64,000 bases of DNA, from NCBI GenBank assembly GCA_046727415.1, contig JBKPCO010000021.1, forward strand, positions 34,052-98,051. The letters run 5' to 3'. This document shows positions 2,293 to 54,518 of the stretch, one piece after another. Position 1 is the first letter of the stretch, and every line of letters starts with the position of its first letter. The stretch comes from Candidatus Methylomirabilota bacterium (GTDB lineage Bacteria; Methylomirabilota; Methylomirabilia; Rokubacteriales; CSP1-6). A model generated the notes under the pieces. It was not told the DNA's origin, did no database searches, and saw only the letters and a program-made list of their open reading frames with translations. A program made the position numbers and the translations under genes.

Positions 2293-2397
2293 GGACCCCC
2301 CGATCTCGAGCGAGTGAGCTAAAGAGCTAATAATTAACACGGCCGCGCGGAAGGGGTCAAGGGAGCGGCGCGTACGGATGCGAGAACGGCAGGATCA

Positions 2398-2421
2398 GAT
2401 CGGGCCCTTCGGGGCCCGATC
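2398..2421 (-). terminator. Candidate intrinsic terminator hairpin downstream of the AOR gene.
   Basis: A perfect 10-bp stem GATCGGGCCC-ttcg-GGGCCCGATC lies immediately 3' of the AOR stop on the minus strand. There is no clear U-tract. Confidence 0.35.
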
Positions 2422-2432
2422 TGCTTGAAACT

Positions 2433-4382: not shown

Positions 4383-5704
4383 ACGGCTACTGGAGTCTCC
4401 CCGGGCGCCTTCGACGGACGCCCCAGAATGGTTTCGGGCAGCAAGGCACTCGTCGTCTTGGTCGCGATGAAGGCCGGCTTGATGTCGAACGGGTTCGCCT
4501 TGAGATGCGCTTTCCAGCGTCCGAGCCCGACGCCGGACTGGACGAGGCCCTTGAGCATGCCGACGTCGTTGGTGGTCCAGATATCGCTCGAGGGGCCGAG
4601 GATGATCGCGCCGATGAGCCGCTCGCCCCGCCAGAGAAGCTTGCGATACGCGGGCCGGTCGGCCTTGACGCCCGATGCCGTCTCCGCCTTGGCGTCGTCC
4701 CAGGCGCCGAACGACGCCACGTCGAGATGGCAGACCTCGACGATGTTGATGATGAGGCTGCCTCGATACGACACGGCCTTGCCGGCCATGTTGGCGCCGA
4801 CCACGCGGCCGTGCTCCTGCGCGGTCGGCTCGATCGCGTGCACCGCGTTCGCGCCCGAGATCAGATCGCGCCCCTCGGCCACGTCACCGGCGGCGTACAC
4901 GTTCGGCACGCTCGAGCGCAGATGATCGTCGACGACGATCCCCTGATTCACCCGCACGCCCGAGTCTTTGAGCCAGTCGAGATTCGTCCGGATCCCGGTG
5001 GCCATGATCACGACGTCGGCCACCAGGTCGCCGCCGGTGGTGAAGCTGAGCTTCTGCCGGCCCTTCACGTCCGCGATCTTCGTGAGCCGCACGCCGGTGC
5101 GCACCTTGACGCCGTGCCGCGTGAGCCACGCCTCGACGAGCCCGGCGCCGGTGTCGTCGATCATCCGCGGCAGGATGCGCGGCGCCACCTCGATGATCGT
5201 CAGCGTGGCGCCAAGGGCCAGGATGGAATTCAGGATGGTGAACGCGATGAAGCCCGCGCCGACCATGACGACGTGACTGCCCGGGCGAATCTGCGCGACG
5301 ACGCCCCGGGCCTGCTCGAGGGTCCAGAAGGAGTGGACGCCCGGGCCGTCGGCGCCCGGGACCGGCGCCCGCACCGCCGAGGAGCCGGTGGCGATCAGGC
5401 AATCGTCGTACTCGACCTTGGTGCCGTCGTCCAGCGTGCACACGTTCGCCTTCGTGTCGAGCGCCGTCACGCGCTTGCCCACGTGCGCCGTCACGCCCCA
5501 GCCGGCCAGCACCTTCGGGGTCGCGGTGAATACGTGCGACTCGGCGATCGAGCGGTCGAGGTAGTACGGCAGAACCATGCGCGAGTACGGCCACTCGGCG
5601 CTCACCAGCGTGATCGTCGACCGCTCGGTCTCCTCCTCGCGGATCGTCCGGATCGCGTTCATCCCCGCGGTACCGCCGCCGATGATCAGGTGTCGGGCCG
5701 CCAT
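4379..5704 (-). CDS. FAD/NAD(P)-binding pyridine nucleotide-disulfide oxidoreductase (AorC-like electron-transfer subunit).
   Basis: The N-terminus MAARHLIIGGGTAGMNAI is a dinucleotide-binding motif, a second one is HVVMVGAGFIAF, and the length is 441 aa. There is a 4-nt overlap with the AOR gene and a 1-nt overlap with the ferredoxin gene. Confidence 0.85.
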   Translation of the reverse strand: MAARHLIIGGGTAGMNAIRTIREEETERSTITLVSAEWPYSRMVLPYYLDRSIAESHVFTATPKVLAGWGVTAHVGKRVTALDTKANVCTLDDGTKVEYDDCLIATGSSAVRAPVPGADGPGVHSFWTLEQARGVVAQIRPGSHVVMVGAGFIAFTILNSILALGATLTIIEVAPRILPRMIDDTGAGLVEAWLTRHGVKVRTGVRLTKIADVKGRQKLSFTTGGDLVADVVIMATGIRTNLDWLKDSGVRVNQGIVVDDHLRSSVPNVYAAGDVAEGRDLISGANAVHAIEPTAQEHGRVVGANMAGKAVSYRGSLIINIVEVCHLDVASFGAWDDAKAETASGVKADRPAYRKLLWRGERLIGAIILGPSSDIWTTNDVGMLKGLVQSGVGLGRWKAHLKANPFDIKPAFIATKTTSALLPETILGRPSKAPGETPVAV

Positions 5705-6174
5705 CAGCGCGCTCCGGTGAGGACCCGCACGGTCCGCTCAGCCGCGAAGTCGCCGAGCCAATCGCCGGTCGCGACGTCCTCGTAGGTGATGGCGGCCGTC
5801 GGGCACGCCTCCGCGCACGCCGGGGCGCCGCCGCACAGGTTGCACTTGAAGGCCTTGCGCGTCGACGGGTCGTAGAACATCGTTCCGTAGGGGCAGGCGA
5901 TCGTGCAGAGCTTGCAGCCGACGCAGCGGTCGTCGAGCACGTCCTTGGCGCCGACGGCGCTGATGGTGATCGCGCCGACCGGGCACGCCGTCATGCACCA
6001 CCCTTCGGCGCACTGCGTACACGTGTACGGCGCGTATGACGTATGGCCCTCGAATGGAGAGACGCGGATGACCGACTTCGCGGGCTGGTAGTCGCCCGTC
6101 TGCATGTAGGAGCACGCCAGCTCGCAGCGCAGGCACCCCGTGCACTTCTCCGGGTGAATTCTGAGAACGCTCAC
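5704..6174 (-). CDS. Ferredoxin with four [4Fe-4S] cluster motifs (AorA-like).
   Basis: 156 aa with four CxxCxxCxxxCP-type motifs (CTGCLRCELAC, CTQCAEGWCMTACP, CVGCKLCTIACP, CNLCGGAPACAEACP). Confidence 0.85.
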   Translation of the reverse strand: MSVLRIHPEKCTGCLRCELACSYMQTGDYQPAKSVIRVSPFEGHTSYAPYTCTQCAEGWCMTACPVGAITISAVGAKDVLDDRCVGCKLCTIACPYGTMFYDPSTRKAFKCNLCGGAPACAEACPTAAITYEDVATGDWLGDFAAERTVRVLTGAR

Positions 6175-6491
6175 CGCTTCTTCCTTTCGCCGCGCCGGTG
6201 CACGCCGCGCTCCAGCCGGCCGATGAACTCGTCGAGCGGGATCGCCGCCATTGTCATGCCGGCGACGCCGCCGCGCGCGCCGAGCTCGACGGACACACGC
6301 GAGATGGTGGCGTTATCCGGCGCCTCGATGATGGTGACGAAATCGTAGGGGCCCAGGACCGCGTACTGCGCGACGACGCGTGCGCCCATGCGCTGCACGT
6401 CGGCGTTGACCTTCCGGATCCATCCCGGGCGACCGCGCAACACCTTGCGTCCCGATTCGGACAGCGTGCTCAGCATCACGTACGTCGACAC
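6171..6491 (-). CDS. GYD domain-containing protein.
   Basis: 106 aa beginning MSTYVMLSTLSESGRKVL, typical of GYD. The start is a GTG at 6491 with a GGAGG Shine-Dalgarno 6 nt upstream. It overlaps the ferredoxin start by 4 nt (ATGA). Confidence 0.6.
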   Translation of the reverse strand: MSTYVMLSTLSESGRKVLRGRPGWIRKVNADVQRMGARVVAQYAVLGPYDFVTIIEAPDNATISRVSVELGARGGVAGMTMAAIPLDEFIGRLERGVHRRGERKKR

Positions 6492-6557
6492 GGCGAGCCT
6501 CCTCGGCCGTTCGCGCGCTAACTCAGCGAACGCGCCGACGCAGCGGTCGGCAGTATA

Positions 6558-7460
6558 TCAAACGGGCGCTTCGCGGTTTGATGCTCTCAGGAACATATAC
6601 ACCGACGAGAAATCCTTCCGGCCGAAACCGTGCGAGGACGCGAGCCGGAGCGCCTGCTGCGCCGCCGGCGCCACGACCACCGGCACCCGCAGCTCGCGCG
6701 CGGCGTTGACGGCGAGCCCGAGATCCTTCGCCATCAGGTCGGTCGTGAAGCCCGGCGCGTAGTCGCGGCTCGACGGGGCCTTGCCGACGAGGCCCGGGAC
6801 CGGATGCATGTGCTCCATCACCCAGGTGTTGCCCGACGACTTGGAGATGACGTCGGTCAGGACTTTCGGATCGACCCCGAAGCCCTCGGCGATCCGGAAT
6901 GCCTCACTGACCGCCACGGCGGCGACGCCGGCGATCAGGTTGTTGCAGAGCTTGGCGACCTCGCCCGATCCCACCGGGCCAACGTGGATGATGTTGGCGC
7001 CCATCGCCGCCAGCACCGGGCGGGCCTCCTCGAAGTCGCGCGCGTCGCCCCCCACCATGATGGCCAGTGTCCCGTCTTCCGCGCGCGGAACGCCGCCGGA
7101 GACCGGCGCGTCGAGGAAACGCGCGCCGCGCGCCGTCGCCGCCTCGGCGATCCGGCGCGAGACGCTCGGGTCGATCGTCGACATGTCGACGCACAGGCGG
7201 CCGCGGGCAACGCTCTCGAGGACCCCGCCGGCACCGAGGTACACCGACTCGGCGTGCGACGACGAGGGCAGGATGGTGATCACCAGCTCGGCGTCGCGGG
7301 CGGCGGCCGCCGCCGAGGCGGCGCGCGCGGCCCCGGCCCGGACGGCGCCGTCCAGCGCGGCCTCGGCCACGTCGTATGCGCTCACGGCGTGCCCCTTCTT
7401 CACGAGGTTCGCCAGCATCGGCCGCCCCATGGCTCCGGTTCCGATGAATCCGATCTTCAT
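6558..7460 (-). CDS. HIBADH-family NAD-binding dehydrogenase (second paralog).
   Basis: The N-terminus is MKIGFIGTGAMGRPMLANLVKKGH, and DAPVSGG and LCNNLIAG are present. 300 aa. Confidence 0.85.
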   Translation of the reverse strand: MKIGFIGTGAMGRPMLANLVKKGHAVSAYDVAEAALDGAVRAGAARAASAAAAARDAELVITILPSSSHAESVYLGAGGVLESVARGRLCVDMSTIDPSVSRRIAEAATARGARFLDAPVSGGVPRAEDGTLAIMVGGDARDFEEARPVLAAMGANIIHVGPVGSGEVAKLCNNLIAGVAAVAVSEAFRIAEGFGVDPKVLTDVISKSSGNTWVMEHMHPVPGLVGKAPSSRDYAPGFTTDLMAKDLGLAVNAARELRVPVVVAPAAQQALRLASSHGFGRKDFSSVYMFLRASNREAPV

Positions 7461-7497
7461 GGACGGATCCTCCTTGCTCGCGGGCTATGATCGCGGG

Positions 7498-8425: not shown

Positions 8426-10051
8426 TTAGAGCGGCCGGATCGGGCGCGACACCGCTCGGCTGAAGGTACAGTTCGGGACGACCGCCGAGTGCTTGCCGGG
8501 CCCGCCGGCGACGATGACCAACACGTCCTCCGGCGATGGCACCTGCGGCAGCAGCGCGTCGTCGTCGGTGATCGCGTGCATCCAGCGCGGCCAGTCCTGG
8601 ATACCCCACATGCCGCCGAGCTTGAGCGTACGAAGCGGAAGCCGCGCGTGCTCGAAGATGAATCGCTGGATGTCCTCGCGGCCGAGCCCGTCCTTCGCGA
8701 TCGTCTGCGCGTGCTCGGGACCAAGGACGATCAGGAGCTGACTCTGCGAGAAGTACCAGCCGACATTCGAGCCGAGCGACACCGACGTGTCGGCCACCGT
8801 CGCGAGAATGCCGGCGGCGGTCGTCGACACGTGATCGTTCACGTTGTGCGGCGGCTCGCCGCCGAACACCGTCACCATGCTGTTCTCGTGCAGGGGGCCC
8901 CAGGGCGCGTCCCGACGCTCGGCGATACAGTAGGAGAACTTCGCGGGGCTTCCCTGGGTCGCCATGTCGTGCCGGCCCGGCCAGGCGCCGCCGACGTTGA
9001 GCAAGATGAGGCGGATCGCCCGGCCGATCGTCGCGTTGGCGCGGAAGCCCGGGCCGAAGCAGCCGCTGCCGCCGTGCACGCCGAGCTCGTCCGCGATCGG
9101 GCCGTGCACGATCAGGAGCGGCGCGACCGAATGCGTCGTCGCCTGGACGCCGTACAGATTGAACGCGGGATCGAGCATCGCCTCGACCGCGGCCACGACG
9201 AGCGGGAAGGCCACCGGCTCACAGCCCGCCATGACGGCGTTGACGGCGAGCTTCTCGAGCGTCACCCGTCGCCAGAGTGGAGGCATCACGCCGAGCAAAC
9301 GGTCGGGCTGGGTGCCGCCGAGCATCGCTCGCACCCGCTCCTCGGTCGGCGGGACGATCGGCAGCCCGTCGCACCACTCGCGCTCGCAGAACGCGGCGAG
9401 AATGGCTTCGGGGGTATCGGGAATTGTAATTGTTGTAGCGGGGGCCTCGAGGCCGGCTTGGATCGAGGGTGGCCTGACAAAGGCGCGTGCCGGCTCCGAC
9501 ACGCCTGGGCTGCGGGTCGCGTCGGATTTGCGCAGCAGGGCTACCAGCTGGTCGACGGCTTGGCGCGCGCGGCGCGTGACGCCTTCGCTACGTTCGCCCC
9601 CGAGCGGATGCTCGAGCACGAGAAGCGGGAGCCCGGCGACGCCGAGGGCGCCGATCTCGCTCAGCGCGAGCCCCTGGAAGACGGTGGTGGTGATGACCCC
9701 GGCGGGCGTGCCCGCCTTCGCCAGCTCGATGGCGTCGTGGAGACTCCACGACGTGCACGACCCTCAGTCGGCCGAGCCCGCGAAGACGACGTCGCAGTCC
9801 TTGGCGAGTCCGGCGACGATCTCCGGCGCGGCCGGCGTCGCCGCGTTCGCCTTGCGGCGGCGAATGATCGACTTGACGCCGTGCTCGGCGGAGAGCAGCG
9901 CGCCGATCTCGTCGGCGAGCCGATCGAAGTTCGCCTTCCTGTTGTCGAGAAAGCCGACGGTCAGGCCGGCCAGCGACGGGGGCAGCGGCGGCGCGCTCGC
10001 CGTGTCGCCGCCGGCGATGCCGACCGGGCTGAGGACGCGAATCAAAGTCAT
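8426..10051 (-). CDS. Candidate selenoprotein of the UGSC-motif type, fused in-frame to a roughly 440-aa conserved domain. The in-frame TGA at 9764..9766 would be read as Sec.
   Basis: ORF 9764..10051 (95 aa) ends at a TGA, but the same frame continues without a stop into ORF 8426..9619. The junction reads ...CDVVFAGSAD-U-GSCTSWSLHD, which is a U-G-S-C redox-like motif. A 10-bp-stem hairpin (CGTCGTGGAG-t-CTCCACGACG, 9733..9753) starts 11 nt 3' of the UGA, which is bacterial-SECIS-like geometry. Downstream translation is protein-like, not Arg-rich junk. Confidence 0.45.
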
Positions 10052-15368: not shown

Positions 15369-18300
15369 TTACCCGAAGTCGTGGGACGGCACGTGATGGC
15401 CGAGCGCCGGAAGACCGCGCGCCCGCGCCGCGCGCACCGAGATGACGCCGTCCTGCCGCTGCGCGATTCCTTCCACGAGGAGGTACGGCTCGGCCACGAG
15501 CGCGAGGCGATGGCGGGCGAAGATCGGCGGCGTCACGATCACGTTGGCGATTCCCGTCTCGTCCTCGAGCGAGAGGAAGACGAAGCCCTTCGCGGTGCCC
15601 GGCCGCTGGCGGACGATGACGCTGCCGGCCACCTGGACTCGGGCGCCGTCGTGCACGCCCGCGAGCTCACGCGCGCTCAGCACGCCGGCGTGGCGGAGCG
15701 CCGCCCGCCGCAGCGCCATCGGGTGGCGGCCGAGCGTGACGCTGGTCCCGGCGTAGTCGGCGGCCAGGCGCTCGACCTCCGTCATCTCGCTCAAGGGGCT
15801 GAGCTCACGCGGCGGGTCCTCGAACAGCGGACCAGCCGACGACGCCGCCACCGTCCAGAGATTGGCGCGGCGGGTCCCGCCGAAGGGCGCGAGGGCGCCG
15901 ATCGCCGCGAGGGTTTCGAGCTCGTCGCGCTCGAGTCGCGCGCGCCGGGCCAGATCATGGACGGAGTCGAACGGCCGCGCGCGCCGGGCCGCCACCAGCG
16001 CGCGGCCGGCCGCCTCGCGAAGCCCCCGGACGTACCGTAATCCCAGCCGTACCGTGAGTCCGGTGTCGTCGGGCTCGATCACACACAGCCACTCCGAGCG
16101 CGTGACGTCGATGGGGCGGATGCGCAAACCATGGCGCTGCGCGTCCTTCACGATGGTGGCCGGATGATAGAAGCCCATCGGCTGGTTGTTGAGGAGCGCG
16201 GCGTAGAACGCAGCCGGATGGTGCACGCGCAGGTACGCGCTCGCGTAGGCGAGCAGCGCGAAGCTAGAGGCGTGGGAGTTGTGGACGACGAGGTCGTTGG
16301 CGAGGAAGTTGTGGTCGCCTTCGATGTGAAGATCGTATGTTTCCCGCGTGCCGACCGGATCGATCGACAGGACACGATCCCAGTACAGATCCGATTCGGC
16401 CACCCGAGCCAGCTCGGGAGAGTCGAAGTATCGAGCGAGCCTGGCCGCAACCCAGCGGCGATATCCTCGCTTGGATTCATTCGGCGACACGAGCTCCCGG
16501 AGCGCGACGCCGGCCCCATGGCCCACGTCGGCCCAGGTGGCCCCTCGATGGTGACGCTCGCGATCGATCACGGCTTTCACCGTCACCGGAACCACGACGC
16601 GTGATGCGCGCCGCTGAACGCCCTTCGTCGCCAAGTTTCTCACCCGTTGCCACTTGTCATGATCGAGAAACCGCCGAGCAATTCGCCGATCGAACCGCCG
16701 GAGGTTCTCCTGTCCGGTGATCGTGACGACGAAACTCGTGACGTGCCGACCCCGGTACGGACGCGAACGCGAGTACACCCGCGACACGATCCCGAGACGG
16801 AGGAGGAGATGCTGGATATCTTCGGCCAAGCGGCGCGAGGCCGTGTCATAGGACGCATGCCCAGCCCCTGAAATCGAGCCGTCGCCTTCCCAGAGTCGCG
16901 CCAGGAGCAGCGCGAGATCCACAGGACAGAGCTCGAAGACCTCCTCGGGTAGCCGCTTCGCTCGCGCGTTGGCGTCCCAGATGCCGAGCCGGCGAGCCCA
17001 TTGCACGGCCCCGATCGGTTTCGATGCGTCATGACGCCGGACATGCACGCTGTAGCAGCTTCCATGCCGGGCGATGGTGGCTCGTGTGTTGTCGAATTGC
17101 TGGACGGCGTCCACGAACTCGTCTCGATGCTGTGAGCTGGTCGTATAGAAATAGAACGTCGTGGGATGACACAGATTGCCTTCGGCGATGAGATCCGCCA
17201 GCACGATCAGCTGATGCCGGTGCCAGCGCCGGCGGCCTGACGCGGGAAGCCGACGAGCCGCCGCAATGTAATCTCCAACCTGGAGACTCGCCAGGCCTCG
17301 CCAACCGTGCATCGTGAGTAGAGGATGCTCGGCGGTCGCCATAATCTCCCGGCCAAGAGCGGTGCGAAGGCGATAGACCATCCGGGGCCCGCTCGATGTC
17401 GCCGCGAGCACGCGGCGCTTGCGCAACCGCATGCTGGCGTCGGATGCCAGCGTCTTCTCGACGCGCACTCGCCCGCTTACGATGTCTTCGATCGTCACCC
17501 AGCCCCCGGTATCGGCGTCGAGCACGCGCGTCTCACCAACGACACATTCAGGAAAGCCATACAGCGCGAAGGCGGTGATCGCGTGAACGATCTCCTCGGC
17601 GGCAGCGCCGTGGATCCCCTGCCGCGCCATCCCCGCCCGCAGCTTCGTCTCGACCTCGGCCATGAGACGCTCGCTCCGCTTGAAGCCGAACGCCCGGCGG
17701 AGCTCCTCGGCCTCCGTGGCCGTGAAGCCGGCCGTCACCATCGCCATGCGTAACAATTGCTCCTGGAACAGCGGCACGCCGAGGGTCCGGCGCAGGATCG
17801 GCTCGAGACTCGGATGGGGATACGTCACGGGCTCGCGGCCGCGGCGTCGCCGGATGTAGGGATGCACCATGTCGCCCACGATCGGCCCGGGGCGAATGAT
17901 CGCGACTTGCACGACGAGGTCATAGAACCGCTCGGGCCTCACGCGCGGGAGCGTCGCCATCTGGGCGCGGCTCTCGACCTGAAACACGCCGATCGTGTCG
18001 GCCTCCTGCAGGCTCTGGTACACGGCCGGATCGTCCGGCGGGAGTCGCGCCAGGTCGACGTCGCCGCCGGTCTCCCGCACGAGCGCCAGCGAGTCCTGGA
18101 TCACGGACATCATGCCGAGCCCGAGCAGATCGACCTTGACGATGCCGAGCCCCGCGCAGTCGTCCTTGTCCCACTGGACAACGACCCGGCCCGGCATGGT
18201 CGCGGGCTCGAGCGGCACCACGTCGTCGAGCCGGCCGGCGGCGATCACCATCCCGCCGGAGTGCTGGCCCAGATGCCGCGGCAGATCCTGGATTCGAGTC

Positions 18301-19742
18301 CAGAGCATGGCGAAGCGCCGGATGCGCGGCGCTGTCGGATCGCAACCGGCCTCGGGCAGATGCTTCGTCAGGAGCTCCTGGGGATCCTGATAGCCCCAGT
18401 TCGCGACGAGCTTCGCGAGCCGGTCGCGCATGTCGCGCGGAAGCCCGAGCGCCTGCCCGACCTCGCGCGCCGCGCTGCGACCGCGATACGTGATGACGTT
18501 GGCGGTCATCCCGGCGCCGAGCCGACCGTAGCGGCGATAGACATGCTGGATGACGGCTTCGCGCCGGTCGCCGCTCGGCAGATCGAGATCGATGTCGGGC
18601 CACTCGTCGCGCGCCTCGCTCAGGAACCGCTCGAACAGGAGCTCCATGCCGACCGGATCGACCGCGGTGATCCCGAGGGCGTAGCAGACCGCGCTGTTGG
18701 CCGCCGAGCCGCGGCCTTGAACGAGGATATCGTGGGTCCGGCAATGCTCGACGATGTCCCAGACGATCAGGAAATAGCCTGCGAGGTCGAGACGGCCGAT
18801 GAGGTCGAGCTCGTGTGCGACCTGACGGCGCGCCCGGGCCGCCAGCGGCCCCATACCGTAGCGCGTTCGGACGCCGCGCTCGGTCAGCTCGCGCAGATAC
18901 CCGAGCGGCGTCTGGCCCGGTGGCAGCGGAAACTCGGGGAACCGGTAGCCGAGATCCTTCAGGGTGAACGCCAGCCGCATCGCCAGCTCACCGGTGGCGG
19001 AGATCGCGTCGGGCAGATCCCGGAACAGCTCGGTCATCTCGGCGCCGCGCTTCAGCGAGCGCTCGCCGTTCGCCAGCAGGCGGCGGCCCGCGCGATCGAG
19101 ATCGGTCTTCTCGCGAATGCATGTGAAGACGTCGGCGAGCGGGCGACCCTCGGGGCGCGCGAAGAGCGGCTGGTTGGAAGCGACGAGCGCCACGGGGACC
19201 GCGCGCGCGAGCGCCACCAGCCCCTGGAGGATTTCTTCCTGGTCGCGGAGGAAATGACGCTGGATCTCGACGAAGCAGCTCGAGCGGCCGAACATCGCCA
19301 CCAGGCGCGCCAGAACCAGCCGGGCGCCGTCGACGTCGCCACTCGCCAGGCGCCGCGCGAGCGGGCCGCGCGTGCCCCCGGTGAGACATACCAGCCCGGC
19401 GGCGTACGGCTCGAGGTCGTCGAGCGCGATCGCGGCGGCGCCCTTCGGAGCCCCGAGCTTCATCCGCGTGATCAGGCGGCACAGGTTCTGATAGCCCTCG
19501 CGGTCCTCGACGAGCAGCGGCAGGCGCGAGCCGTCGGCCAGTGTGATCTCGCTGCCGACGATCGGCTTCACGCCCGCGTTCGCGGCCGCCCGGGTGAGCC
19601 GCGCCGCGCCGTAGACGCCGTCGCGATCGACGAGGGCCACCGCCGGCATCTCGAGCCGCGCCGCCTCGGCGGCGAACGCCTCCGGGTGCTCGGCGCCCTC
19701 GAGGAACGAGAAGGCCGATTGCGCGTGGAGCTCGATGAACAC
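15369..19742 (-). CDS. dnaE2: Error-prone DNA polymerase III alpha subunit DnaE2 (ImuC), interrupted by an intein.
   Basis: The PHP domain N-terminus is ELHAQSAFSFLEGA. Pol III alpha core blocks are present (GSAANSAVCYALGITAVDP, IDLDLPSGDRREAVIQ), and there is an OB-fold C-terminus. The likely start is the GTG at 19742, 2 nt after the imuB stop. A 423-aa intein is inserted between ...ALYGFPE and SHASSFALL. Confidence 0.9.
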   Translation of the reverse strand: MFIELHAQSAFSFLEGAEHPEAFAAEAARLEMPAVALVDRDGVYGAARLTRAAANAGVKPIVGSEITLADGSRLPLLVEDREGYQNLCRLITRMKLGAPKGAAAIALDDLEPYAAGLVCLTGGTRGPLARRLASGDVDGARLVLARLVAMFGRSSCFVEIQRHFLRDQEEILQGLVALARAVPVALVASNQPLFARPEGRPLADVFTCIREKTDLDRAGRRLLANGERSLKRGAEMTELFRDLPDAISATGELAMRLAFTLKDLGYRFPEFPLPPGQTPLGYLRELTERGVRTRYGMGPLAARARRQVAHELDLIGRLDLAGYFLIVWDIVEHCRTHDILVQGRGSAANSAVCYALGITAVDPVGMELLFERFLSEARDEWPDIDLDLPSGDRREAVIQHVYRRYGRLGAGMTANVITYRGRSAAREVGQALGLPRDMRDRLAKLVANWGYQDPQELLTKHLPEAGCDPTAPRIRRFAMLWTRIQDLPRHLGQHSGGMVIAAGRLDDVVPLEPATMPGRVVVQWDKDDCAGLGIVKVDLLGLGMMSVIQDSLALVRETGGDVDLARLPPDDPAVYQSLQEADTIGVFQVESRAQMATLPRVRPERFYDLVVQVAIIRPGPIVGDMVHPYIRRRRGREPVTYPHPSLEPILRRTLGVPLFQEQLLRMAMVTAGFTATEAEELRRAFGFKRSERLMAEVETKLRAGMARQGIHGAAAEEIVHAITAFALYGFPECVVGETRVLDADTGGWVTIEDIVSGRVRVEKTLASDASMRLRKRRVLAATSSGPRMVYRLRTALGREIMATAEHPLLTMHGWRGLASLQVGDYIAAARRLPASGRRRWHRHQLIVLADLIAEGNLCHPTTFYFYTTSSQHRDEFVDAVQQFDNTRATIARHGSCYSVHVRRHDASKPIGAVQWARRLGIWDANARAKRLPEEVFELCPVDLALLLARLWEGDGSISGAGHASYDTASRRLAEDIQHLLLRLGIVSRVYSRSRPYRGRHVTSFVVTITGQENLRRFDRRIARRFLDHDKWQRVRNLATKGVQRRASRVVVPVTVKAVIDRERHHRGATWADVGHGAGVALRELVSPNESKRGYRRWVAARLARYFDSPELARVAESDLYWDRVLSIDPVGTRETYDLHIEGDHNFLANDLVVHNSHASSFALLAYASAYLRVHHPAAFYAALLNNQPMGFYHPATIVKDAQRHGLRIRPIDVTRSEWLCVIEPDDTGLTVRLGLRYVRGLREAAGRALVAARRARPFDSVHDLARRARLERDELETLAAIGALAPFGGTRRANLWTVAASSAGPLFEDPPRELSPLSEMTEVERLAADYAGTSVTLGRHPMALRRAALRHAGVLSARELAGVHDGARVQVAGSVIVRQRPGTAKGFVFLSLEDETGIANVIVTPPIFARHRLALVAEPYLLVEGIAQRQDGVISVRAARARGLPALGHHVPSHDFG
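16278..17546 (-). mobile_element. Intein (423 aa) with a LAGLIDADG homing-endonuclease domain inside dnaE2.
   Basis: It begins with Cys (CVVGETRVLD) and ends ...LANDLVVHN, followed by Ser (the +1 residue). It carries two LAGLIDADG-like motifs (LADLIAEGN, LLARLWEGDGSISG). The flanking extein sequences rejoin as a conserved Pol III motif (GFPE-SHASS). Confidence 0.85.
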
Positions 19743-19744
19743 GG

Positions 19745-21259
19745 TCAGTCGTAGACCGCGTCGAGGTACCAGTGGTCGGTCAGCCGGTCGCGCGCGATGC
19801 GGCAGAGCGCGCCATCGGACAGCACAACGTCCCACTCCTCGCGCGCCCACGCCTCGACATCCCACCACTCGCCCGACGCGCGCCACGGCCCCGCCCACGC
19901 GAGAACGCGCCGCGCGTCCACGCGCATCGGCCGCGCGCCCACCGCCTCGACGTCGACACGCCGCGCCGGCCGCATTCGGCGGACGGCGAGCCGATGGTCC
20001 CGGCTGTCGAGGCCAGGCACATCCGGCGACCGCCTGTCGAGCGGCTCGGGCTGCGAGAACCCCAGCATCGTGAACGCGTCGGAACGATACGAGTCGACGA
20101 GCGCGGGCGAGCCGACATTCTCGGTGCCGACGAGGGCGGCCAGACGCGCGAGCACGGACACGAGGTCGCGGGGCGCGGGCGCGAGCGGCTGCCAGAGTCC
20201 TCCCTGCCCGGGCTGAGTCCGGATTGGATGTGCGCTCACCGCCACGCGCGTCACGGCGGCGCCGGGGGGGTGCGCCTCGAGATCGAGGATCACCAGAGTG
20301 AGGATCGGCTTGACGTCGACCACCGGGTAGGCGAGCGACACGTCTCGCGCGTGGTGACCACCGGTGGCGAGGCCGAGTCGGACCTCGAGCGCGTCAGCGG
20401 CGAGCGCCGCCGACGCGAGCCGCTTGCAGAGACGCTCCAGCACGGTCTCGAGCACGCCCGCGAGCACGCCGAGCGAGTCGATCTCCCACTCGAGCCCCTG
20501 CGCTTCCTCCCAGAATGGCGGCGGAGTCCACGGTCGGAACGGATCGTGATCGAGGCCGAGCGCCAGATCGTGAGCGCGCAGGCCGGCGGGGCCGAGCCGC
20601 GTGGCGAGCCCCGCGCGCGGCAGTGCCGCCAGCTCGCCGAGGGTCCGCACGCCCCATCGGGCGAGGGTCTCGGCGAGATCCGGAGAGAGTGCGAGCGTCG
20701 CCAGCGCCGCGCCCGCGAGCGCCGCGCGTTCCCGCCCCTCGGGAACGACCGTCACCGGGGCTGACGCCCTCGCCGCCGTCACTCTCGCGGCGGTCCGGCT
20801 GGCCGCCAACCCGACGCGGGCCGCGAGGCCGACCGCTCGCGCCTGATGCACGAGGCGTCGCCCGATGGCGGGGGGATCGCCGATGAGACGCTCGAGACCG
20901 ACCGTGTCGACGTAGACGAGCCCCGGGCCACCGTCCTCGATCCGTGGCGAAACGGCCAGCGCCGCTTCGAGCAGGGCCTGCCGCGCGGACAGAACGGACT
21001 CCTCGGTCAACGGTCGTGTCACCAGCATCGGGCAGCGGGCCCGCGCCTCCGCCTCCGTCATCCCCGGACGCACGCTCTGCGCGCGCGCCTCGGCGTTCGC
21101 CTCCACGATCATCGCGATCTTCGGCGCCGGTGAGCCGGCGCTCAGGCGATCGACCCGGACGTTGACGACGCCCAGCGGGCGCGCGCGCAGGGCAGGCTCG
21201 CCACGCTCGACCGCGGCCGCGTCGAAATACTCGACGAGCACGCAGGCGAAGCGGTTCAC
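19745..21259 (-). CDS. imuB: ImuB, a Y-family-polymerase-like mutasome component.
   Basis: The N-terminus is VNRFACVLVEYFDAAAVER, typical of ImuB/DinB-like proteins. The GTG start at 21259 overlaps the imuA stop (GTGA). The first 120 codons of ORF 19745..21619 are Arg-rich junk. Confidence 0.8.
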   Translation of the reverse strand: MNRFACVLVEYFDAAAVERGEPALRARPLGVVNVRVDRLSAGSPAPKIAMIVEANAEARAQSVRPGMTEAEARARCPMLVTRPLTEESVLSARQALLEAALAVSPRIEDGGPGLVYVDTVGLERLIGDPPAIGRRLVHQARAVGLAARVGLAASRTAARVTAARASAPVTVVPEGRERAALAGAALATLALSPDLAETLARWGVRTLGELAALPRAGLATRLGPAGLRAHDLALGLDHDPFRPWTPPPFWEEAQGLEWEIDSLGVLAGVLETVLERLCKRLASAALAADALEVRLGLATGGHHARDVSLAYPVVDVKPILTLVILDLEAHPPGAAVTRVAVSAHPIRTQPGQGGLWQPLAPAPRDLVSVLARLAALVGTENVGSPALVDSYRSDAFTMLGFSQPEPLDRRSPDVPGLDSRDHRLAVRRMRPARRVDVEAVGARPMRVDARRVLAWAGPWRASGEWWDVEAWAREEWDVVLSDGALCRIARDRLTDHWYLDAVYD

Positions 21260-50023: not shown

Positions 50024-50662
50024 CTATGAGCCGGCCGGGGCCGAGGTCGCGGCAACGGCGCCGCGGCGTCGGACGGCACGCCGGCCCCATGTCCACCCTC
50101 GCACGCCAAGCAGCACAGCGAGCGCGGCCGCGTACCAGTACGGGTCCCTCACCCCGACCTTGGCCAGCCACAGGTAGTGGAGAACCCCGCAGACGCCGGC
50201 CACGTAGGCCAGCCGGTGCAGCCGCGTCCAGTTACGCGCGCCGAGCCGCCGGATCATCCCAGCCGTCGACGTCGCGGCAAGCGGGATCAGCGAGAGCATC
50301 GCCAGCATGCCGATCGTGATGTACGGGCGCTTGACAATGTCCGCCCACATCCTCGGCCAGTCGAAGAAGAAGTCGAGGACGATCCACACCGAAAAGTGCA
50401 GGCACACGTAGGCAAAGGCGAAGAGGCCGAGCAGCCGGCGCAGCGCGATCGGCCACGAGAGACCGAACACGACGCGGAGCGGTGTCATCGCCAATGAGGC
50501 GAGCAGGATCCGGATCGTCCAGTCACCGAGCGTGTTGGTGACGAAGCTGATGGGATTCGCGCCCAGATCGTCGGTCCACGTCCGGTAGGCCAGGGTCGCC
50601 AGCGGCACGAGACAGACGCCCCACACCGCGACCTTGAGCGCGATCCTCGCCCTATGCGACAT
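50024..50662 (-). CDS. msrQ: MsrQ, the heme-binding membrane subunit of the periplasmic methionine sulfoxide reductase.
   Basis: 212 aa with multiple TM segments, conserved His residues, and a position directly downstream of msrP. Confidence 0.85.
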   Translation of the reverse strand: MSHRARIALKVAVWGVCLVPLATLAYRTWTDDLGANPISFVTNTLGDWTIRILLASLAMTPLRVVFGLSWPIALRRLLGLFAFAYVCLHFSVWIVLDFFFDWPRMWADIVKRPYITIGMLAMLSLIPLAATSTAGMIRRLGARNWTRLHRLAYVAGVCGVLHYLWLAKVGVRDPYWYAAALAVLLGVRGWTWGRRAVRRRGAVAATSAPAGS

Positions 50663-50686
50663 CGCGCGGCAGCCGGCGGCCCGGCA

Positions 50687-51637
50687 TCAGTAGAATTTCT
50701 TCAAGTCCATCCCGGCGTACAGCGAAGCGACCTGGTCGGCGTACCCGTTGAAGGGCAGCGTTGCCCGCCGGCGGAATTCTCCGATGCGCCGCTCGTCGGC
50801 CTGGCTCCAGCGTGGATGGCTAACCGCCGGGTTGACGTTGGAGTAGAACCCGTACTCGCTGGGCGCGGCCTTCTCCCACGACGTCCTGGGCTGCTCGGTC
50901 ACCAGACGGATGCGAACGATCGACTTGGCGCTCTTGAACCCGTACTTCCACGGCACCACCATCCGCACCGGCGCGCCGTTCTGGTTGGGCAGGACCTGCC
51001 CGTACATTCCGACCGTGAGCAGCGTCAGGGGATGCAGCGCCTCGTCGAGCCGGAGGCCCTCGACGTACGGCCAGTCGAGCGATGAGAACCCGAAGAATCC
51101 CGGTTTCTGGGCCGGGAACTGGGCCGGGTCGAGCAGCGTGGTGAACTCGACGTACTTCGCCTGGCCGGTCGGCTCGACGCGCTTGAGCAGCGACGCGAGC
51201 GGAAACCCGATCCACGGGATCACCATCGACCACGCCTCGACGCAACGCAGCGAGTAGACGCGCTCCTCCAGGGGAAAGAGGCGGAGCAGCTCATCGATGT
51301 CGAACGTCTTGGGCTTGTGCACGAGCCCGTCGACCTGGACCGTCCACGGGCGCGGGCGCAGCGTGTGGCCCAGCCGCGAGGGATCGTCCTTGTTGACCCC
51401 GAACTCGTAGAAGTTGTTGTAGGTCGTGGCGTGATCGATCTTCGTGGGCGGCTCGGTCAGGCTGAAGGCGGCGTTGCGGGTCGCCGCGAGCGGCTGTCCT
51501 TTTGGGGTCGCCGCCGCGCCCGGCGATGGCATGAGCGCCAGCGCGGCCGCGCCGGCCATCAGCTCGCGGCGGCTCAGGTAGAGCTTGGGATCGGTGATCT
51601 CGCTCGCGGCGAACCGCGGCGCGCGTCGGATCAGCAT
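50687..51637 (-). CDS. msrP: MsrP, the molybdopterin-dependent periplasmic protein-methionine-sulfoxide reductase catalytic subunit.
   Basis: TAT signal ([14 protein letters not shown]) and sulfite-oxidase-fold blocks ([29 protein letters not shown]). Confidence 0.9.
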
Positions 51638-51661
51638 GGTGCTTCCTCCTGCGAGACGATC

Positions 51662-52342
51662 TTACACCGTCGCAAATTTGTATCCGTGGCCATGGAGCGT
51701 AAGGATCCAGACGGGTTGGTCGGCGTCGGCCTCGAACTTCTTGCGCAATCGCAAGATATGCGTGTCGACCGTCCGCGTCGTGGGAAATCGCTCGTAGCCC
51801 CAGACCTCGTCCAGCAGACGCTCGCGGGTGAGCACCTCGCCCCGGTGCGCCACCAGGAACACGAGCAGGTCGAATTCCTTGCGCGTGAGCCGGATTTCCT
51901 CACCCGCCTTGAAGACCTGCCGGACTCGCGGTCGAATCCGGACATCTCCGAACGTGAACTCCTCGAACCGGTTCCGCGGCCCCGGGCGGCGCAGCACCGC
52001 GCGCACGCGCGCGAGCAGCTCGCGCAAAGAGAAAGGCTTGGTGACATAGTCGTCGGCCCCCAGCTCGAGCCCGCGGACCCGGTCGACTTCCTCGCCGCGC
52101 GCGGTCAGCATGATGATCGGCGCCTCGATGCCCTTCTCGCGTAGGGCGCGGCAGACGTCCCACCCGCTCATCCGAGGCATCATGATGTCGAGCAGGATCA
52201 GGTCGGGCGCGTCGCTCTGGGCCAGGGCGAGCGCGTCCTGGCCGTTGGTGGCCGACGCGATCTGATATCCCTCGAATCGGAGGTTGTCCTCCAGACCACG
52301 AACGATCTCGGGCTCGTCGTCGACGATCAGGATCCTAGCCAT
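51662..52342 (-). CDS. OmpR-family response regulator.
   Basis: MARILIVDDEPEI followed by a winged-helix C-terminus (LTRKEFDLLVFLVAHRGEVLTRERLLDEVWG). The start is the ATG at 52342, and the upstream part of the ORF is junk. Confidence 0.9.
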   Translation of the reverse strand: MARILIVDDEPEIVRGLEDNLRFEGYQIASATNGQDALALAQSDAPDLILLDIMMPRMSGWDVCRALREKGIEAPIIMLTARGEEVDRVRGLELGADDYVTKPFSLRELLARVRAVLRRPGPRNRFEEFTFGDVRIRPRVRQVFKAGEEIRLTRKEFDLLVFLVAHRGEVLTRERLLDEVWGYERFPTTRTVDTHILRLRKKFEADADQPVWILTLHGHGYKFATV

Positions 52343-53858
52343 CACCTCGCGCCGCCAGCGGTAGCCGTAGCGTGAAGCGGCTGCCCGCCCCCAGCGCGCT
52401 CTCCACGGTGACGTCGCCTCCGTGCGCTTCGGTGATGTGGCGGACGAGCGCGAGGCCGACGCCGCTGCCGCGGCGTCCCTGTGTATCGCTCCGGCCCACG
52501 CGGTAGAACTTCTCGAAGATCTTCGCGTGCTCGTGGGGCGGGATCCCCATGCCCCGGTCCGCCACGGTGATGGCAAGACGCCCGTCCACGACCCGCGCGC
52601 TCACTGCCAGCGCCCTCTCGTCGCCCGAATACTTGATCGCGTTGTCGACGAGGTTCGCCAGCGCCTGCCCGATGGCATCCGCGTCCACCGGGATGTCCGG
52701 CAGGTCGGGCGCCACGTCCACGTCGACCTTGAAGCCGTGCTGCGCGAGCGGATAGTCGAACGCCTCGAGCACCGACCGGATCAGCGGCTCGATCGCCGTC
52801 GGCGCCATCCGATAAATCTGCCGGCCGCCCTCGATGCGCGAGAAGTCCAGCACGTTGTCGATCAAGCGCGACAGCCGCTCGCTCTCGCGCGCGATGACCC
52901 GGTAGTACTGGCGACGCCCGCCTTCGTCGGTGATCCGGCCCATGTCGAGGGTCTCGCCGAACATCCGGATCACGGAGAGCGGGGTCTTGAGATCGTGGGA
53001 CACGTTGGCGACGAAGTCCGACTTGAGCCGCGCCATCTCGGTCTCCCGGCGCGCCAGCCTCCAAGTCGCGACGATCCCCGCGATGATGACCAGCAGCAAC
53101 ACCCCGTAGGCGCCGGTGAACAGCATGACCTGACGGCGGACCGCGCGCCGCGGCGCCGCGTCCGCCGTCTGGTAGACCGCCAGCCGCCAGTCGGGCAGCG
53201 TGTCACGGAACGTCACCGACAAGATTGGCTGGGTGTCACCGACCGGCGCGCGACTGTAGACCGCGCGCCCCTCGTGATCGAGCACGGCGAAGATAGTCGG
53301 CGACTCGAGCGTGCCCAGCGCGGTCTCGAAGATCTCGCGACGCAGCGCTTCGGGGTCGCGAATGAACGCCGCGAGCACCGGCTCGCCGCCGCGTCCGGCC
53401 AGAAGCGCGACACAGACCCGGTGGCCCGCGACCACCTGGCGCTTGCCGCCTCGCTCGAGCTTGCCCTGAGTCGCCTCGGCGACGAGCGGCCCGATGACGG
53501 CGGCGTCGCCCTCCTGCCACGCCTTGGGATAGAGGAGCGCGCCGCGCCGGGTTACCAGATAGAGCCGGCGGACCAGCGGCGAACGGGCAACGATCTCGTC
53601 CACCGCCCGCGCCGACCAGCTGTCAGCCTCGAGCGCGCCCTGAAGCCGGTCCAGGAAGGTGTCTTCCTCGCGGCGGAGCATCATCTCGACCTTCGCGGCG
53701 GCCATGGACGCCATGTCGCGCGCCTGCTCGCGGTACAGGAGCTCGGAGGACACCTCCCACTGGTGGATCGAGATGTAGCCGAGGATCGCGACGATGGTCG
53801 CCGGAACGGCGATCGCCAGGAGCGCGAGCAGCGAGAACCGTGCGGATGGCGACCGCAC
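52335..53858 (-). CDS. Sensor histidine kinase (two TM segments, periplasmic domain, HisKA, HATPase).
   Basis: HisKA (VSHDLKTPL) and HATPase (DNAIKYS...DRGMGIP...GSGVGLAL) are present. It overlaps the response-regulator gene by 8 nt. Confidence 0.85.
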   Translation of the reverse strand: MRSPSARFSLLALLAIAVPATIVAILGYISIHQWEVSSELLYREQARDMASMAAAKVEMMLRREEDTFLDRLQGALEADSWSARAVDEIVARSPLVRRLYLVTRRGALLYPKAWQEGDAAVIGPLVAEATQGKLERGGKRQVVAGHRVCVALLAGRGGEPVLAAFIRDPEALRREIFETALGTLESPTIFAVLDHEGRAVYSRAPVGDTQPILSVTFRDTLPDWRLAVYQTADAAPRRAVRRQVMLFTGAYGVLLLVIIAGIVATWRLARRETEMARLKSDFVANVSHDLKTPLSVIRMFGETLDMGRITDEGGRRQYYRVIARESERLSRLIDNVLDFSRIEGGRQIYRMAPTAIEPLIRSVLEAFDYPLAQHGFKVDVDVAPDLPDIPVDADAIGQALANLVDNAIKYSGDERALAVSARVVDGRLAITVADRGMGIPPHEHAKIFEKFYRVGRSDTQGRRGSGVGLALVRHITEAHGGDVTVESALGAGSRFTLRLPLAARGDG

Positions 53859-53865
53859 CCCGGCG

Positions 53866-54402
53866 TTACCCCCGCTCGGCGAGGAGCCGCTTGATCATCG
53901 CCTCGGTGGCTTCGTAGTCGCCCTCGCCGATGTGTCGGTAGCGGACGATGCCGTTTCGATCCACCAGGAGCGTGGTCGGCCAGGCGATGACACCCCACCG
54001 TTTCCAGATCGTGAACTCGTTGTCCTGGACGACCGGGTAGTGGACGCCGAGCTTCTTCGTGGCGTCGATAACCTTGTCGTACGGCTTCTCCCACGCGAAC
54101 TCCGGACTGTGGACGCCGACGACGGTGAAGCCGTCCTTCTCGTAGCGCTCGTGCCAGTCCCGCACCTGCGGGATCACATTGCGGCAGTTGATTCAGCCGA
54201 ACGTCCAGAATTCGATGAGCACGACGCGGCCCCGCAGGCCCTGCATGGTCAAGGGACCGCTGTTGATCCAGCGGTCCCCCGACACCTCGGGCGCGGGGGC
54301 GCCAATGCGCAGGGCCTGGCCCGCCGCGGGCCCATTCATCAGGCCCACCGCCAGAAAAGCGGCCAGAACGAGCCCATGGCTCCGTCGCATGTCGTTCTTC
54401 AT
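53866..54402 (-). CDS. Candidate selenocysteine-containing periplasmic thiol:disulfide oxidoreductase (TlpA/redoxin fold) with a UxxC active site. The in-frame TGA is at 54193..54195.
   Basis: ORFs 54193..54402 and 53866..54177 are in the same frame and separated only by a TGA. The joined sequence reads ...VVLIEFWTFG-U-INCRNVIPQ..., which is the thioredoxin-fold WxxCxxC position. The N-terminus is a signal peptide (MKNDMRRSHGLVLAAFLAVGL). A SECIS-like structure lies at 54152..54186 (outer stem UGCC/GGCA, inner CCCGC-AGGU-GCGGG), about 20-35 nt 3' of the UGA. Confidence 0.55.
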
Positions 54403-54518
54403 CTTATCCTCGTCCTCACAGCGAACGTCGACCTGCTATGCGCCAGTGTGGAGGACGGGCGCGCAGCGTTCGTCACAACGGTGTCAAATCTTTCGAGGCG
54501 GCGGCCGGCCGGCGAGCC

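Follow-up and report, generated by a model that had tools for sequence, protein, structure and literature searches.

A predicted selenocysteine-containing redoxin linked to a two-component system and MsrPQ in Methylomirabilota

The redoxin gene and its in-frame TGA codon

The stretch of DNA analysed here, referred to as the window, comprises 64,000 nucleotides of contig JBKPCO010000021.1 (positions 34,052 to 98,051 of the forward strand; assembly GCA_046727415.1) from a Candidatus Methylomirabilota bacterium. It contains a gene for an exported thioredoxin-fold protein, hereafter the redoxin, whose reading frame is interrupted by a TGA codon and which is followed on the same strand by genes for a two-component system and for the methionine-sulfoxide reductase system MsrPQ. 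The features on which the reading of this gene depends are the following, in window coordinates.

53866..54402, minus strand: redoxin gene, encoding an exported thioredoxin-fold protein; stop codon TAA at 53866..53868
54193..54195, minus strand: in-frame UGA codon, the predicted selenocysteine (Sec) position, residue 70 of the redoxin
54151..54177, minus strand: predicted hairpin of the bacterial Sec insertion sequence (bSECIS) type, covering the conserved codons +7 to +11

The minus-strand frame from 54402 to 53866 holds 178 codons plus TAA, with one internal TGA that lies in the context ...LIEFWTFG-U-INCRNVIPQ... of the translation. The preliminary description of this DNA had reported two open reading frames (ORFs), at 54193..54402 and 53866..54177, in one frame and parted by a TGA, and these coordinates are exact. 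When Cys is substituted for the TGA, Pfam matches to the joined protein cross the junction (residues 33-167), with 56.3 bits against PF00578 AhpC-TSA (gathering score 26), 52.1 bits against PF08534 Redoxin (gathering score 26.6) and 47.1 bits against PF13905 Thioredoxin_8 (gathering score 27). The N-terminus, MKNDMRRSHGLVLAAFLAVGLMNGPAAGQA, judged from its letters, resembles a signal peptide of the general secretory (Sec) type; the active site is U-I-N-C (U70, C73) and the cis-Pro loop carries the motif AWPT (WPT). The interval 53866..54402 is thus a single intact gene, predicted to encode a secreted single-domain thioredoxin-fold oxidoreductase with Sec at the N-terminal active-site residue.

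Conservation and selection across the TGA codon

Eight close loci, all of them in metagenome-assembled genomes of Candidatus Rokubacteria/Methylomirabilota, were found by scanning GTDB species genomes, and a metagenome scan gave 80 further loci, mostly from soil. The eight genome loci all carry TGA at the same codon and conserve the upstream part. Among the readable relatives the codon is TGA in 86 of 87 and TGC in one (L073), and the only other frame disruption is an upstream frameshift in L045. A protein search returned full-length Cys homologues with up to 79% identity (P0001, FWTFDCINC), and about 30 of the best 120 protein matches were 103-residue entries (76-93% identity) starting at the V or M of VIPQ. 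Since these entries start just past the TGA, they bear the signature of gene callers that halted at a conserved UGA.

Selection was examined in 75 distinct Sec-form sequences, whose pairwise amino acid identity reaches down to 56% (median 79%). Variability at codon positions 1, 2 and 3 was 0.077, 0.081 and 0.225 in the 40 codons before the TGA and 0.079, 0.062 and 0.223 after it, and this agreement indicates that both halves are translated and equally constrained. In five of the 75 sequences the codon at which the downstream ORF would start reads GTC or GTA, and this lack of conservation excludes a separately initiated downstream gene. The orthologues, checked for split or degraded genes, include none, the upstream half being under the same purifying selection as the downstream half, and the latter has no conserved start of its own.

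If translation truly ended at the TGA, the locus would hold a split or decaying gene with a 69-residue fragment and a separately translated 103-residue ORF. This is how public records present it, in that JGI, ENA and NCBI annotate only the 103-residue ORF from GTG or ATG (VIPQ...). The break would, however, sit within the active-site motif of one thioredoxin fold, and the equal constraint on the two parts down to 56% identity, the variable presumed start, the fixation of TGA in nearly all relatives and the single further frame disruption all speak against it. We give this explanation practically no credence; a split gene or pseudogene is rejected, being effectively refuted by the comparative data. 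Genome-wide reassignment of TGA was also rejected: TGA is an ordinary stop here, terminating many ORFs, among them msrP, the product of which fits the MsrP model along its entire length.

The SECIS-type hairpin

The upper stem of the hairpin pairs CCCGC with GCGGG (54172..54168 with 54163..54159) and is extendable by U54173-A54158. Its apical loop AGGU (54167..54164) starts 25 nt past the UGA, and a lower GUG/CAC pairing connects 54177..54175 with 54153..54151. Across the Sec forms the consensus is CCCGC-AG(G/U)U-GCGGG, often with a U-A or U-G pair and a lower GUG/YAC pairing, and the structure has a stem of 5-6 bp, a loop of 4 nt and a minimum free energy (MFE) of -9.9 to -13.4 kcal/mol. It agrees in all four respects with the published bSECIS consensus, which gives an apical loop of 3-9 nt and a stem of 4-16 bp, a G in the first two loop positions followed by G/U, a distance of 16-37 nt from the UGA and an MFE <= -7.5 kcal/mol (PMC13188914, section 5).

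Codons +7 to +11 (AUC CCG CAG UUG/GUG CGG) show no variation in codon choice among the 75 distinct Sec forms. Pro is encoded by CCG in 75/75, Arg by CGG in 75/75 and Leu in 61/61 by TTG, a rare and otherwise unused Leu codon. Outside the hairpin the same amino acids vary in their codons: Leu at -8 is CUG or CUC, and Arg at +16 is CGC in 30, CGG in 29 and CGU in 9 sequences. When 108 segments of five degenerate codons were compared, the hairpin segment alone had zero synonymous deviation, and the eight segments of lowest variation all lay between the UGA and the hairpin. The hairpin is absent in 8/8 Cys-form genes with DNA examined. There, Pro at the corresponding site is CCG, CCT, CCA or CCC; seven retain Leu, six with CTC or CTG and L123 with TTG, and L124 has Ile; and the Arg position holds CGC in three and CGG in one, otherwise encoding Lys or Gln.

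A nested stem-loop had been placed at 54152..54186, at SECIS distance from the TGA; it is present, and it is conserved only in the TGA forms. We therefore consider it most likely, from these sequence comparisons, that the UGA is recoded co-translationally by SelB and tRNA-Sec by means of a hairpin within the coding sequence.

Probable selenocysteine use in this genome

The use of Sec in this genome is supported indirectly by a second selenoprotein gene in the window and by the literature on the phylum.

8426..10051, minus strand: UGSC-family selenoprotein gene, TGA at 9764..9766, motif D-U-G-S-C

The downstream piece of this gene matches Pfam UGSC from profile position 94, starting at the first residue past the stop. 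The joined protein, with Cys substituted, matches the NCBIfam model "UGSC family (seleno)protein" over model positions 2-147 with 116 bits, the cut-off being 125. The UGA of this gene is followed, 19 nt on, by an 8-bp hairpin whose loop reads GUC. Methylomirabilota have been reported to be rich in Sec: 63 selenoproteins were predicted in one metagenome-assembled genome, and hydrogenases of the Sec type are also reported from the phylum (PMC13188914, PMC13582414). As a separate observation, the UGSC gene frame, unusually, stays open for ~365 residues past the UGSC domain in a stretch that matches nothing in Pfam or NCBIfam, and the gene may be a fusion to an uncharacterised domain.

We infer that Sec, and not Cys, is inserted at residue 70. 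A tRNA-ReC can insert Cys at a SECIS-dependent UGA, which is a general limit of selenoprotein calls made in silico (PMC13582414), and the UGA and hairpin could accordingly be recoded through a SelB-dependent tRNA-ReC (selC*) to give an ordinary CxxC redoxin. Although tRNA-ReC-like tRNAs occur in some Sec-using lineages, they are tied mainly to UxxU-type genes in other phyla (PMC13582414). Moreover, the UGA and the constrained hairpin are kept in all but one of the readable relatives even though one change (to TGC, as in L073) gives Cys, and their retention despite so easy a route argues for a benefit specific to Sec. Insertion of Cys thus seems to us very improbable.

Relationship of the redoxin to known proteins

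Among solved structures, the nearest match is the C-terminal domain of Mycobacterium tuberculosis DipZ (2hyx_A, E = 2.7e-37), aligned over residues 31-175 (~145 residues), and the fold and the position of the active site follow from this homology. In the alignment U70 falls on the first Cys of the DipZ motif SCINC, which together with the Cys homologues bears out the earlier placement of the TGA at the first Cys of a CxxC motif. The DipZ domain (2hyx, 5cyy) and the redoxin have the same active-site dipeptide (C-I-N-C versus U-I-N-C) and share HxPE(F/Y) and WP motifs. The two differ in architecture, as DipZ joins this domain to a CcdA-like membrane reductant module and a further C-terminal domain, whereas the redoxin consists of a signal peptide and a single domain. 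More distant thioredoxin-like relatives are domains of SOQ1 and NHLRC2, and Bacillus subtilis YkuV.

TlpA in the PDB matches only at E = 2.6e-5, and in NCBIfam the redoxin scores 39.8 against TlpA NF047696 (cut-off 230), 61.8 against ResA NF002854 (cut-off 170) and 44.1 against DsbE TIGR00385 (cut-off 123); it is also far under the cut-off of the StoA model. None of the NCBIfam selenoprotein models covers it, the best being WAxxUGC_long with 35 bits against 300. The label "TlpA-like" used in the preliminary description therefore holds at the level of the superfamily but not below it, since the TlpA, ResA and DsbE models are missed by far and DipZ is nearest. On these scores the redoxin is a free-standing secreted member of the TlpA/DipZ superfamily and not a TlpA orthologue.

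A peroxiredoxin in the strict sense (AhpC/TSA) has its peroxidatic Cys in a PxxxTxxC context and lacks a CxxC/cis-Pro oxidoreductase site. PF00578 is the top Pfam match of the redoxin, yet the active site of this protein combines a WPT loop with UxxC, the arrangement of TlpA/DipZ-type reductases, and the redoxin may have peroxidase or oxidant-scavenging activity. In a rough neighbour-joining tree, Sec and Cys forms are interleaved inside the Rokubacterial clade. Interchange of Sec and Cys is typical of selenoprotein families.

The redoxin had also been called unusual, which overstates the case, because UxxC redoxin and thiol:disulfide selenoproteins form an already known, catalogued class and Methylomirabilota are Sec-rich (PMC13188914). 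The catalogued UxxC redoxins (Table 1 of that work) have in common with the present protein the thioredoxin fold, the Pfam Redoxin/AhpC-TSA assignment and Sec as the first residue of UxxC, and they likewise have Cys homologues and a bSECIS immediately after the UGA. The redoxin may be the "Redoxin family protein" listed there (PMC13188914).

Genes downstream of the redoxin

Four genes follow the redoxin gene in the window.

52335..53858, minus strand: sensor histidine kinase; HisKA and HATPase_c (Pfam), two transmembrane segments
51662..52345, minus strand: OmpR/PhoB-family response regulator, overlapping the end of the kinase gene
50687..51637, minus strand: MsrP, periplasmic molybdopterin methionine-sulfoxide reductase; NCBIfam NF003767, Pfam Oxidored_molyb
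50024..50662, minus strand: MsrQ, haem-b membrane subunit; NCBIfam NF003831, Pfam Ferric_reduct

The kinase gene starts with GTG (53858) 7 nt past the redoxin TAA, and msrP and msrQ each follow the preceding gene with a 24-nt gap, so that the gene order given earlier, with a 7-nt gap to the kinase and then the OmpR regulator, MsrP and MsrQ on the same strand, is correct. MsrP matches NF003767 over its full length with 473.6 bits (cut-off 207), carries a twin-arginine translocation-type signal (SRRELM) and ends in TGA, while MsrQ reaches 165.6 bits against NF003831 (cut-off 130).

Between its membrane part and HisKA/HATPase_c the kinase has a lineage-specific periplasmic domain of ~210 residues, and no HAMP domain was detected in it. 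A homologue search with the sensor domain gave only close relatives, of 49% identity or more, apart from a single marginal match (34%, E = 3.9e-4). Met49 and Met52 do not vary among the kinase homologues, 78% of which have Cys149. The best matches of the kinase are generic PhoR/WalK models, under cut-off, and it scores 123.9 against the heavy-metal kinase subfamily model cztS_silS_copS TIGR01386 (cut-off 292.55). The regulator scores best with the YycF and PhoB models, all under the equivalog cut-offs, and reaches 167.9 against HprR NF008567 (cut-off 353). The description of the cluster as being of HprSR-MsrPQ type is hence sound for MsrP and MsrQ, which score above their NCBIfam cut-offs, but for the kinase and regulator, which miss HprS/HprR, it is an analogy only.

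MsrQ passes electrons to MsrP, and MsrP needs no thiol donor. The only Cys of the MsrP encoded here is the Mo-ligand Cys, and with MsrQ feeding the enzyme the redoxin is unlikely to be the electron donor to MsrP. A TlpA-superfamily redoxin that is genetically coupled to extracytoplasmic methionine-sulfoxide reduction is known from the N-terminal domain of Neisseria PilB (2h30, 2fy6, 2jzr), with which the redoxin has weak similarity (E ~1e-5). The PilB redoxin recycles the catalytic cysteines of MsrA/B, whereas the reductase here is the molybdoenzyme MsrP fed by MsrQ, and a recycling role of the PilB type therefore cannot apply.

Gene linkage among relatives

Linkage was counted in 71 loci, including the window, that have at least 400 nt downstream of the redoxin. 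The next gene after the redoxin in these loci is as follows.

Histidine kinase: 44
msrP directly: 22
Response regulator: 2
None of these: 3

Where the kinase/regulator pair is absent, msrP begins 27 nt past the redoxin stop. Among redoxins with 88% identity or more the pair may be absent or present (L001, L002, L047 and L048 versus the window, L042, L043, L049 and L050), and such differences between close relatives point to recent, clean gain or loss of the two-component system. The Cys forms show comparable arrangements, with redoxin-kinase-regulator-MsrP-MsrQ in P0006, redoxin-MsrP-MsrQ in P0002, redoxin-kinase-regulator with 4-nt overlaps in P0016, P0019 and P0020, and redoxin-kinase in P0003. 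The gap between redoxin and kinase is 7-17 nt in most Sec forms and becomes a 4-nt overlap in the Cys forms P0006, P0016, P0019 and P0020. The linked loci keep these units beneath differing upstream genes (VirF/ThiS, fumarase or a thiamine pyrophosphate enzyme), the last two being neighbours of Cys forms.

The redoxin is accordingly the constant member of a lineage-restricted module with a two-component system and MsrPQ, and the link proposed from the window alone is conserved and recurs beside different flanking genes. With the TGA, the hairpin, the selection and the gene linkage all conserved, the core of the preliminary description, a Sec redoxin, is supported.

As an aside, in L051, L054 and L070 the regulator is followed by an ORF of ~500 residues instead of msrP, with a lower GC content at third codon positions (0.72-0.74), which suggests an insertion or rearrangement.

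A methionine-rich gene and a conserved box upstream

The gene directly upstream of the redoxin in 50 of 88 loci resembles mrpX, and it is full-length with a signal peptide in 33. Its mature product has 48-72 residues with D/G-x-M-K repeats, 15-22% Met and 51% charged residues, and its stop codon lies a few nt ahead of the redoxin start.

Loci with the MrpX-like gene: L044, L046, L059-L065, L071-L075, L079, L081, L085-L087, L090-L097, L100-L109, L113-L120

In the window and its closest relatives this gene is missing or survives as remnants of 12-25 residues; in the window, the remnant GATAAGATGAAGAACGACATG (~54388..54408) now makes the redoxin's own start (MKNDM). Thus the operon begins with an MrpX-like gene in most relatives, and the sub-lineage of the window has lost it.

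A second conserved element stands at the head of the cluster.

54470..54490, minus strand: conserved 21-nt box GATTTGACACCGTTGTGACGA, candidate promoter/operator at the operon head

Its consensus is GATTTGACAC(C/G)G(T/C)TGTGACGA, with CCAYACT ~20 nt later (CCACACT in the window). The box occurs once in the window, where 0 are expected by chance, and related loci totalling 783 kb hold 50 copies of its core motif, each of them on the gene strand and at the cluster head, upstream of the mrpX-like gene or, where this is absent, of the redoxin. It is present also in loci lacking the kinase/regulator pair. Both the box and the Met-rich ORF were found by k-mer and regular-expression searches, a global alignment of the upstream regions being uninformative because of indels. 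The box may be a binding site for the regulator or a promoter.

Comparison with described MsrPQ systems

The MrpX of Azospira suillum is a periplasmic protein with a signal peptide, 20% Met and 44% charged residues, which serves as a hypochlorite sink and is re-reduced by YedY/MsrP, and MrpX/YedY constitutes an established hypochlorite-scavenging pair (PMC4436054). Like the MrpX-YedY1Z1 system, the relatives described here cluster MsrP/MsrQ with a secreted peptide of ~20% Met and ~50% charged residues, a likeness that is compositional. The A. suillum system is controlled by SigF/NrsF, an extracytoplasmic function sigma/anti-sigma pair (PMC4436054), whereas this clade has a two-component system; the Sec/Cys redoxin is an extra conserved member here, and the window itself is without the Met-rich peptide gene.

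An MrpX-like peptide is also encoded in the OrhKR-regulated cluster of uropathogenic Escherichia coli. This cluster, OrhKR-c3566-c3568, which comprises an MsrQP-like pair and the MrpX-like peptide, places a two-component system beside an MsrPQ-type reductase, as here (PMC8550376). The HprSR (YedVW)-hiuH-msrPQ genes of E. coli resemble the present cluster as well, with a two-component system beside MsrPQ in an oxidant-inducible envelope repair system. The E. coli systems differ from it in that the kinase and regulator here miss the HprS/HprR thresholds and the sensor domain is lineage-specific. The E. coli HprSR and OrhKR systems are also without a thioredoxin-like gene, and the word "thioredoxin" is absent from PMC4436054 and PMC8550376.

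Proposed role and alternative explanations

Given these observations, we consider it probable that the Sec redoxin heads an oxidant-inducible operon for envelope defence together with a two-component system and MsrPQ. The operon would run from the conserved box through redoxin, kinase, regulator and msrP to msrQ, presumably as one transcript. Oxidants in the envelope (hypochlorous acid (HOCl), chloramines, peroxides) would be sensed by the kinase, and the regulator would induce the operon from the conserved box. MsrPQ would then re-reduce methionine sulfoxide in envelope proteins and, in the relatives, also in the sacrificial Met-rich peptide. The seleno-redoxin would provide a thiol/selenol arm, in which the selenolate attacks oxidised cysteines (sulfenates, disulfides) or the oxidant itself, Cys73 resolves the product into a selenenylsulfide, and a membrane reductant of the CcdA/DsbD type encoded elsewhere recycles this selenenylsulfide.

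Several results weigh against this explanation. The single-sequence fold around the UGA is unremarkable for GC-rich DNA when compared with shuffles (z = +0.61), the invariant stem offers no compensatory covariation, and a scan of the whole window at Rfam gathering thresholds found nothing; as the single fold is unexceptional, the case for recoding rests on the suppression of synonymous change specific to UGA forms. Neither the window nor the related loci contain selA, selB, selC or selD, and we infer the presence of the Sec machinery. With ARAGORN, the window yielded no tRNA at all and the related loci no tRNA-Sec, and Pfam annotation of the ~60 window ORFs gave no selA, selB or selD and no CcdA/DsbD reductant, so that within the 64-kb window none of this type lies near the redoxin. 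Since MsrP needs no thiol donor, the role of a redoxin beside it is not obvious. A sigma-70 consensus promoter scan of 48.5-55.3 kb found none, and terminators there were at chance level only. Finally, distant homologues (<=38% identity) and a 56% identical homologue from Acidobacteriota have no linkage with msrPQ or a two-component system, which makes the linkage lineage-restricted and partly confounded by shared ancestry.

A more specific version of the envelope-defence explanation can be put forward only tentatively. In it, the seleno-redoxin would be a catalytic scavenger or repair enzyme for reactive-chlorine damage in the envelope, whose selenolate reacts with HOCl, protein chloramines or sulfenylated cysteines and is recycled through a selenenylsulfide. 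It would thus be a third, selenium-based arm of the MrpX/MsrPQ defence, possibly feeding its redox state to the kinase. We know of no described MsrPQ system with a selenium-based arm.

It is also conceivable, although we think it unlikely, that the redoxin serves chiefly as a redox co-sensor with the adjacent kinase and that MsrPQ is the regulated output, which would be compatible with a role in envelope defence. The selenol/thiol state would then be passed on to the periplasmic domain of the kinase, for example via Cys149. The junction of redoxin and kinase is the tightest in the cluster (7-17 nt, or the 4-nt overlap of the Cys forms), some genomes have redoxin, kinase and regulator without adjacent msrPQ, the kinase sensor domain is lineage-specific, as is the redoxin clade, and a periplasmic Cys occurs in 78% of the kinases. 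In 22 loci and in P0002, however, the redoxin is followed by msrPQ without a kinase, and the close relatives that differ in this gene show that the redoxin is kept in its absence; moreover, Cys149 is not invariant, and the invariant Met49 and Met52 suit a methionine-based sensor at least equally well. Much less credible is a housekeeping job of the TlpA/ResA/CcmG type, in maturation of cytochrome c or copper centres, with msrPQ as a neighbour by inherited synteny. The superfamily similarity to ResA, DsbE and TlpA, the origin of all linked loci in one phylum, where synteny could be historical, and the unlinked distant homologues agree with it. Yet the linkage persists through changes of both flanks, including the upstream VirF/ThiS, fumarase and thiamine pyrophosphate enzyme genes, and through repeated gain or loss of the kinase/regulator pair, and the redoxin is accompanied by the MrpX-like gene and by an upstream box of its own. 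No ccm, cytochrome or copper genes are adjacent, and the TlpA, ResA and DsbE models remain far under their cut-offs.

Significance

A conserved association between a Sec/Cys redoxin and an MsrPQ/MrpX-type module that has its own two-component system appears to be new, being absent from the literature searched. Because the selenoprotein class itself was already known, the advance is incremental and not fundamental. Public annotation reduces the redoxin to a 103-residue fragment, whereby a whole selenoprotein clade is mis-called in an abundant lineage of an uncultured soil phylum, and the frozen hairpin provides a clean SECIS example for a phylum with reportedly very large selenoproteomes. The clade joins a thiol/selenol oxidoreductase to molybdenum-based MsrPQ repair and an MrpX-like sacrificial peptide, which suggests that envelope defence against hypochlorite-type oxidants can unite methionine and (seleno)cysteine chemistry under one regulator. 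Ready comparisons are offered by the natural Sec and Cys forms and by clusters that differ in having the kinase/regulator pair or the MrpX-like gene.

Other features of the window

Two further features of the window lie apart from the redoxin cluster. A DnaE (DNA polymerase III alpha) ORF of 1674 codons (15372..20393, minus strand) is interrupted past the finger domain by an intein (Intein_splicing) that includes a LAGLIDADG homing-endonuclease domain. A redox cluster at 1411..7484 encodes an aldehyde:ferredoxin oxidoreductase (AFOR), a pyridine-nucleotide disulfide oxidoreductase and a 4Fe-4S ferredoxin, together with a GYD-domain protein and two 3-hydroxyisobutyrate-dehydrogenase-like genes.

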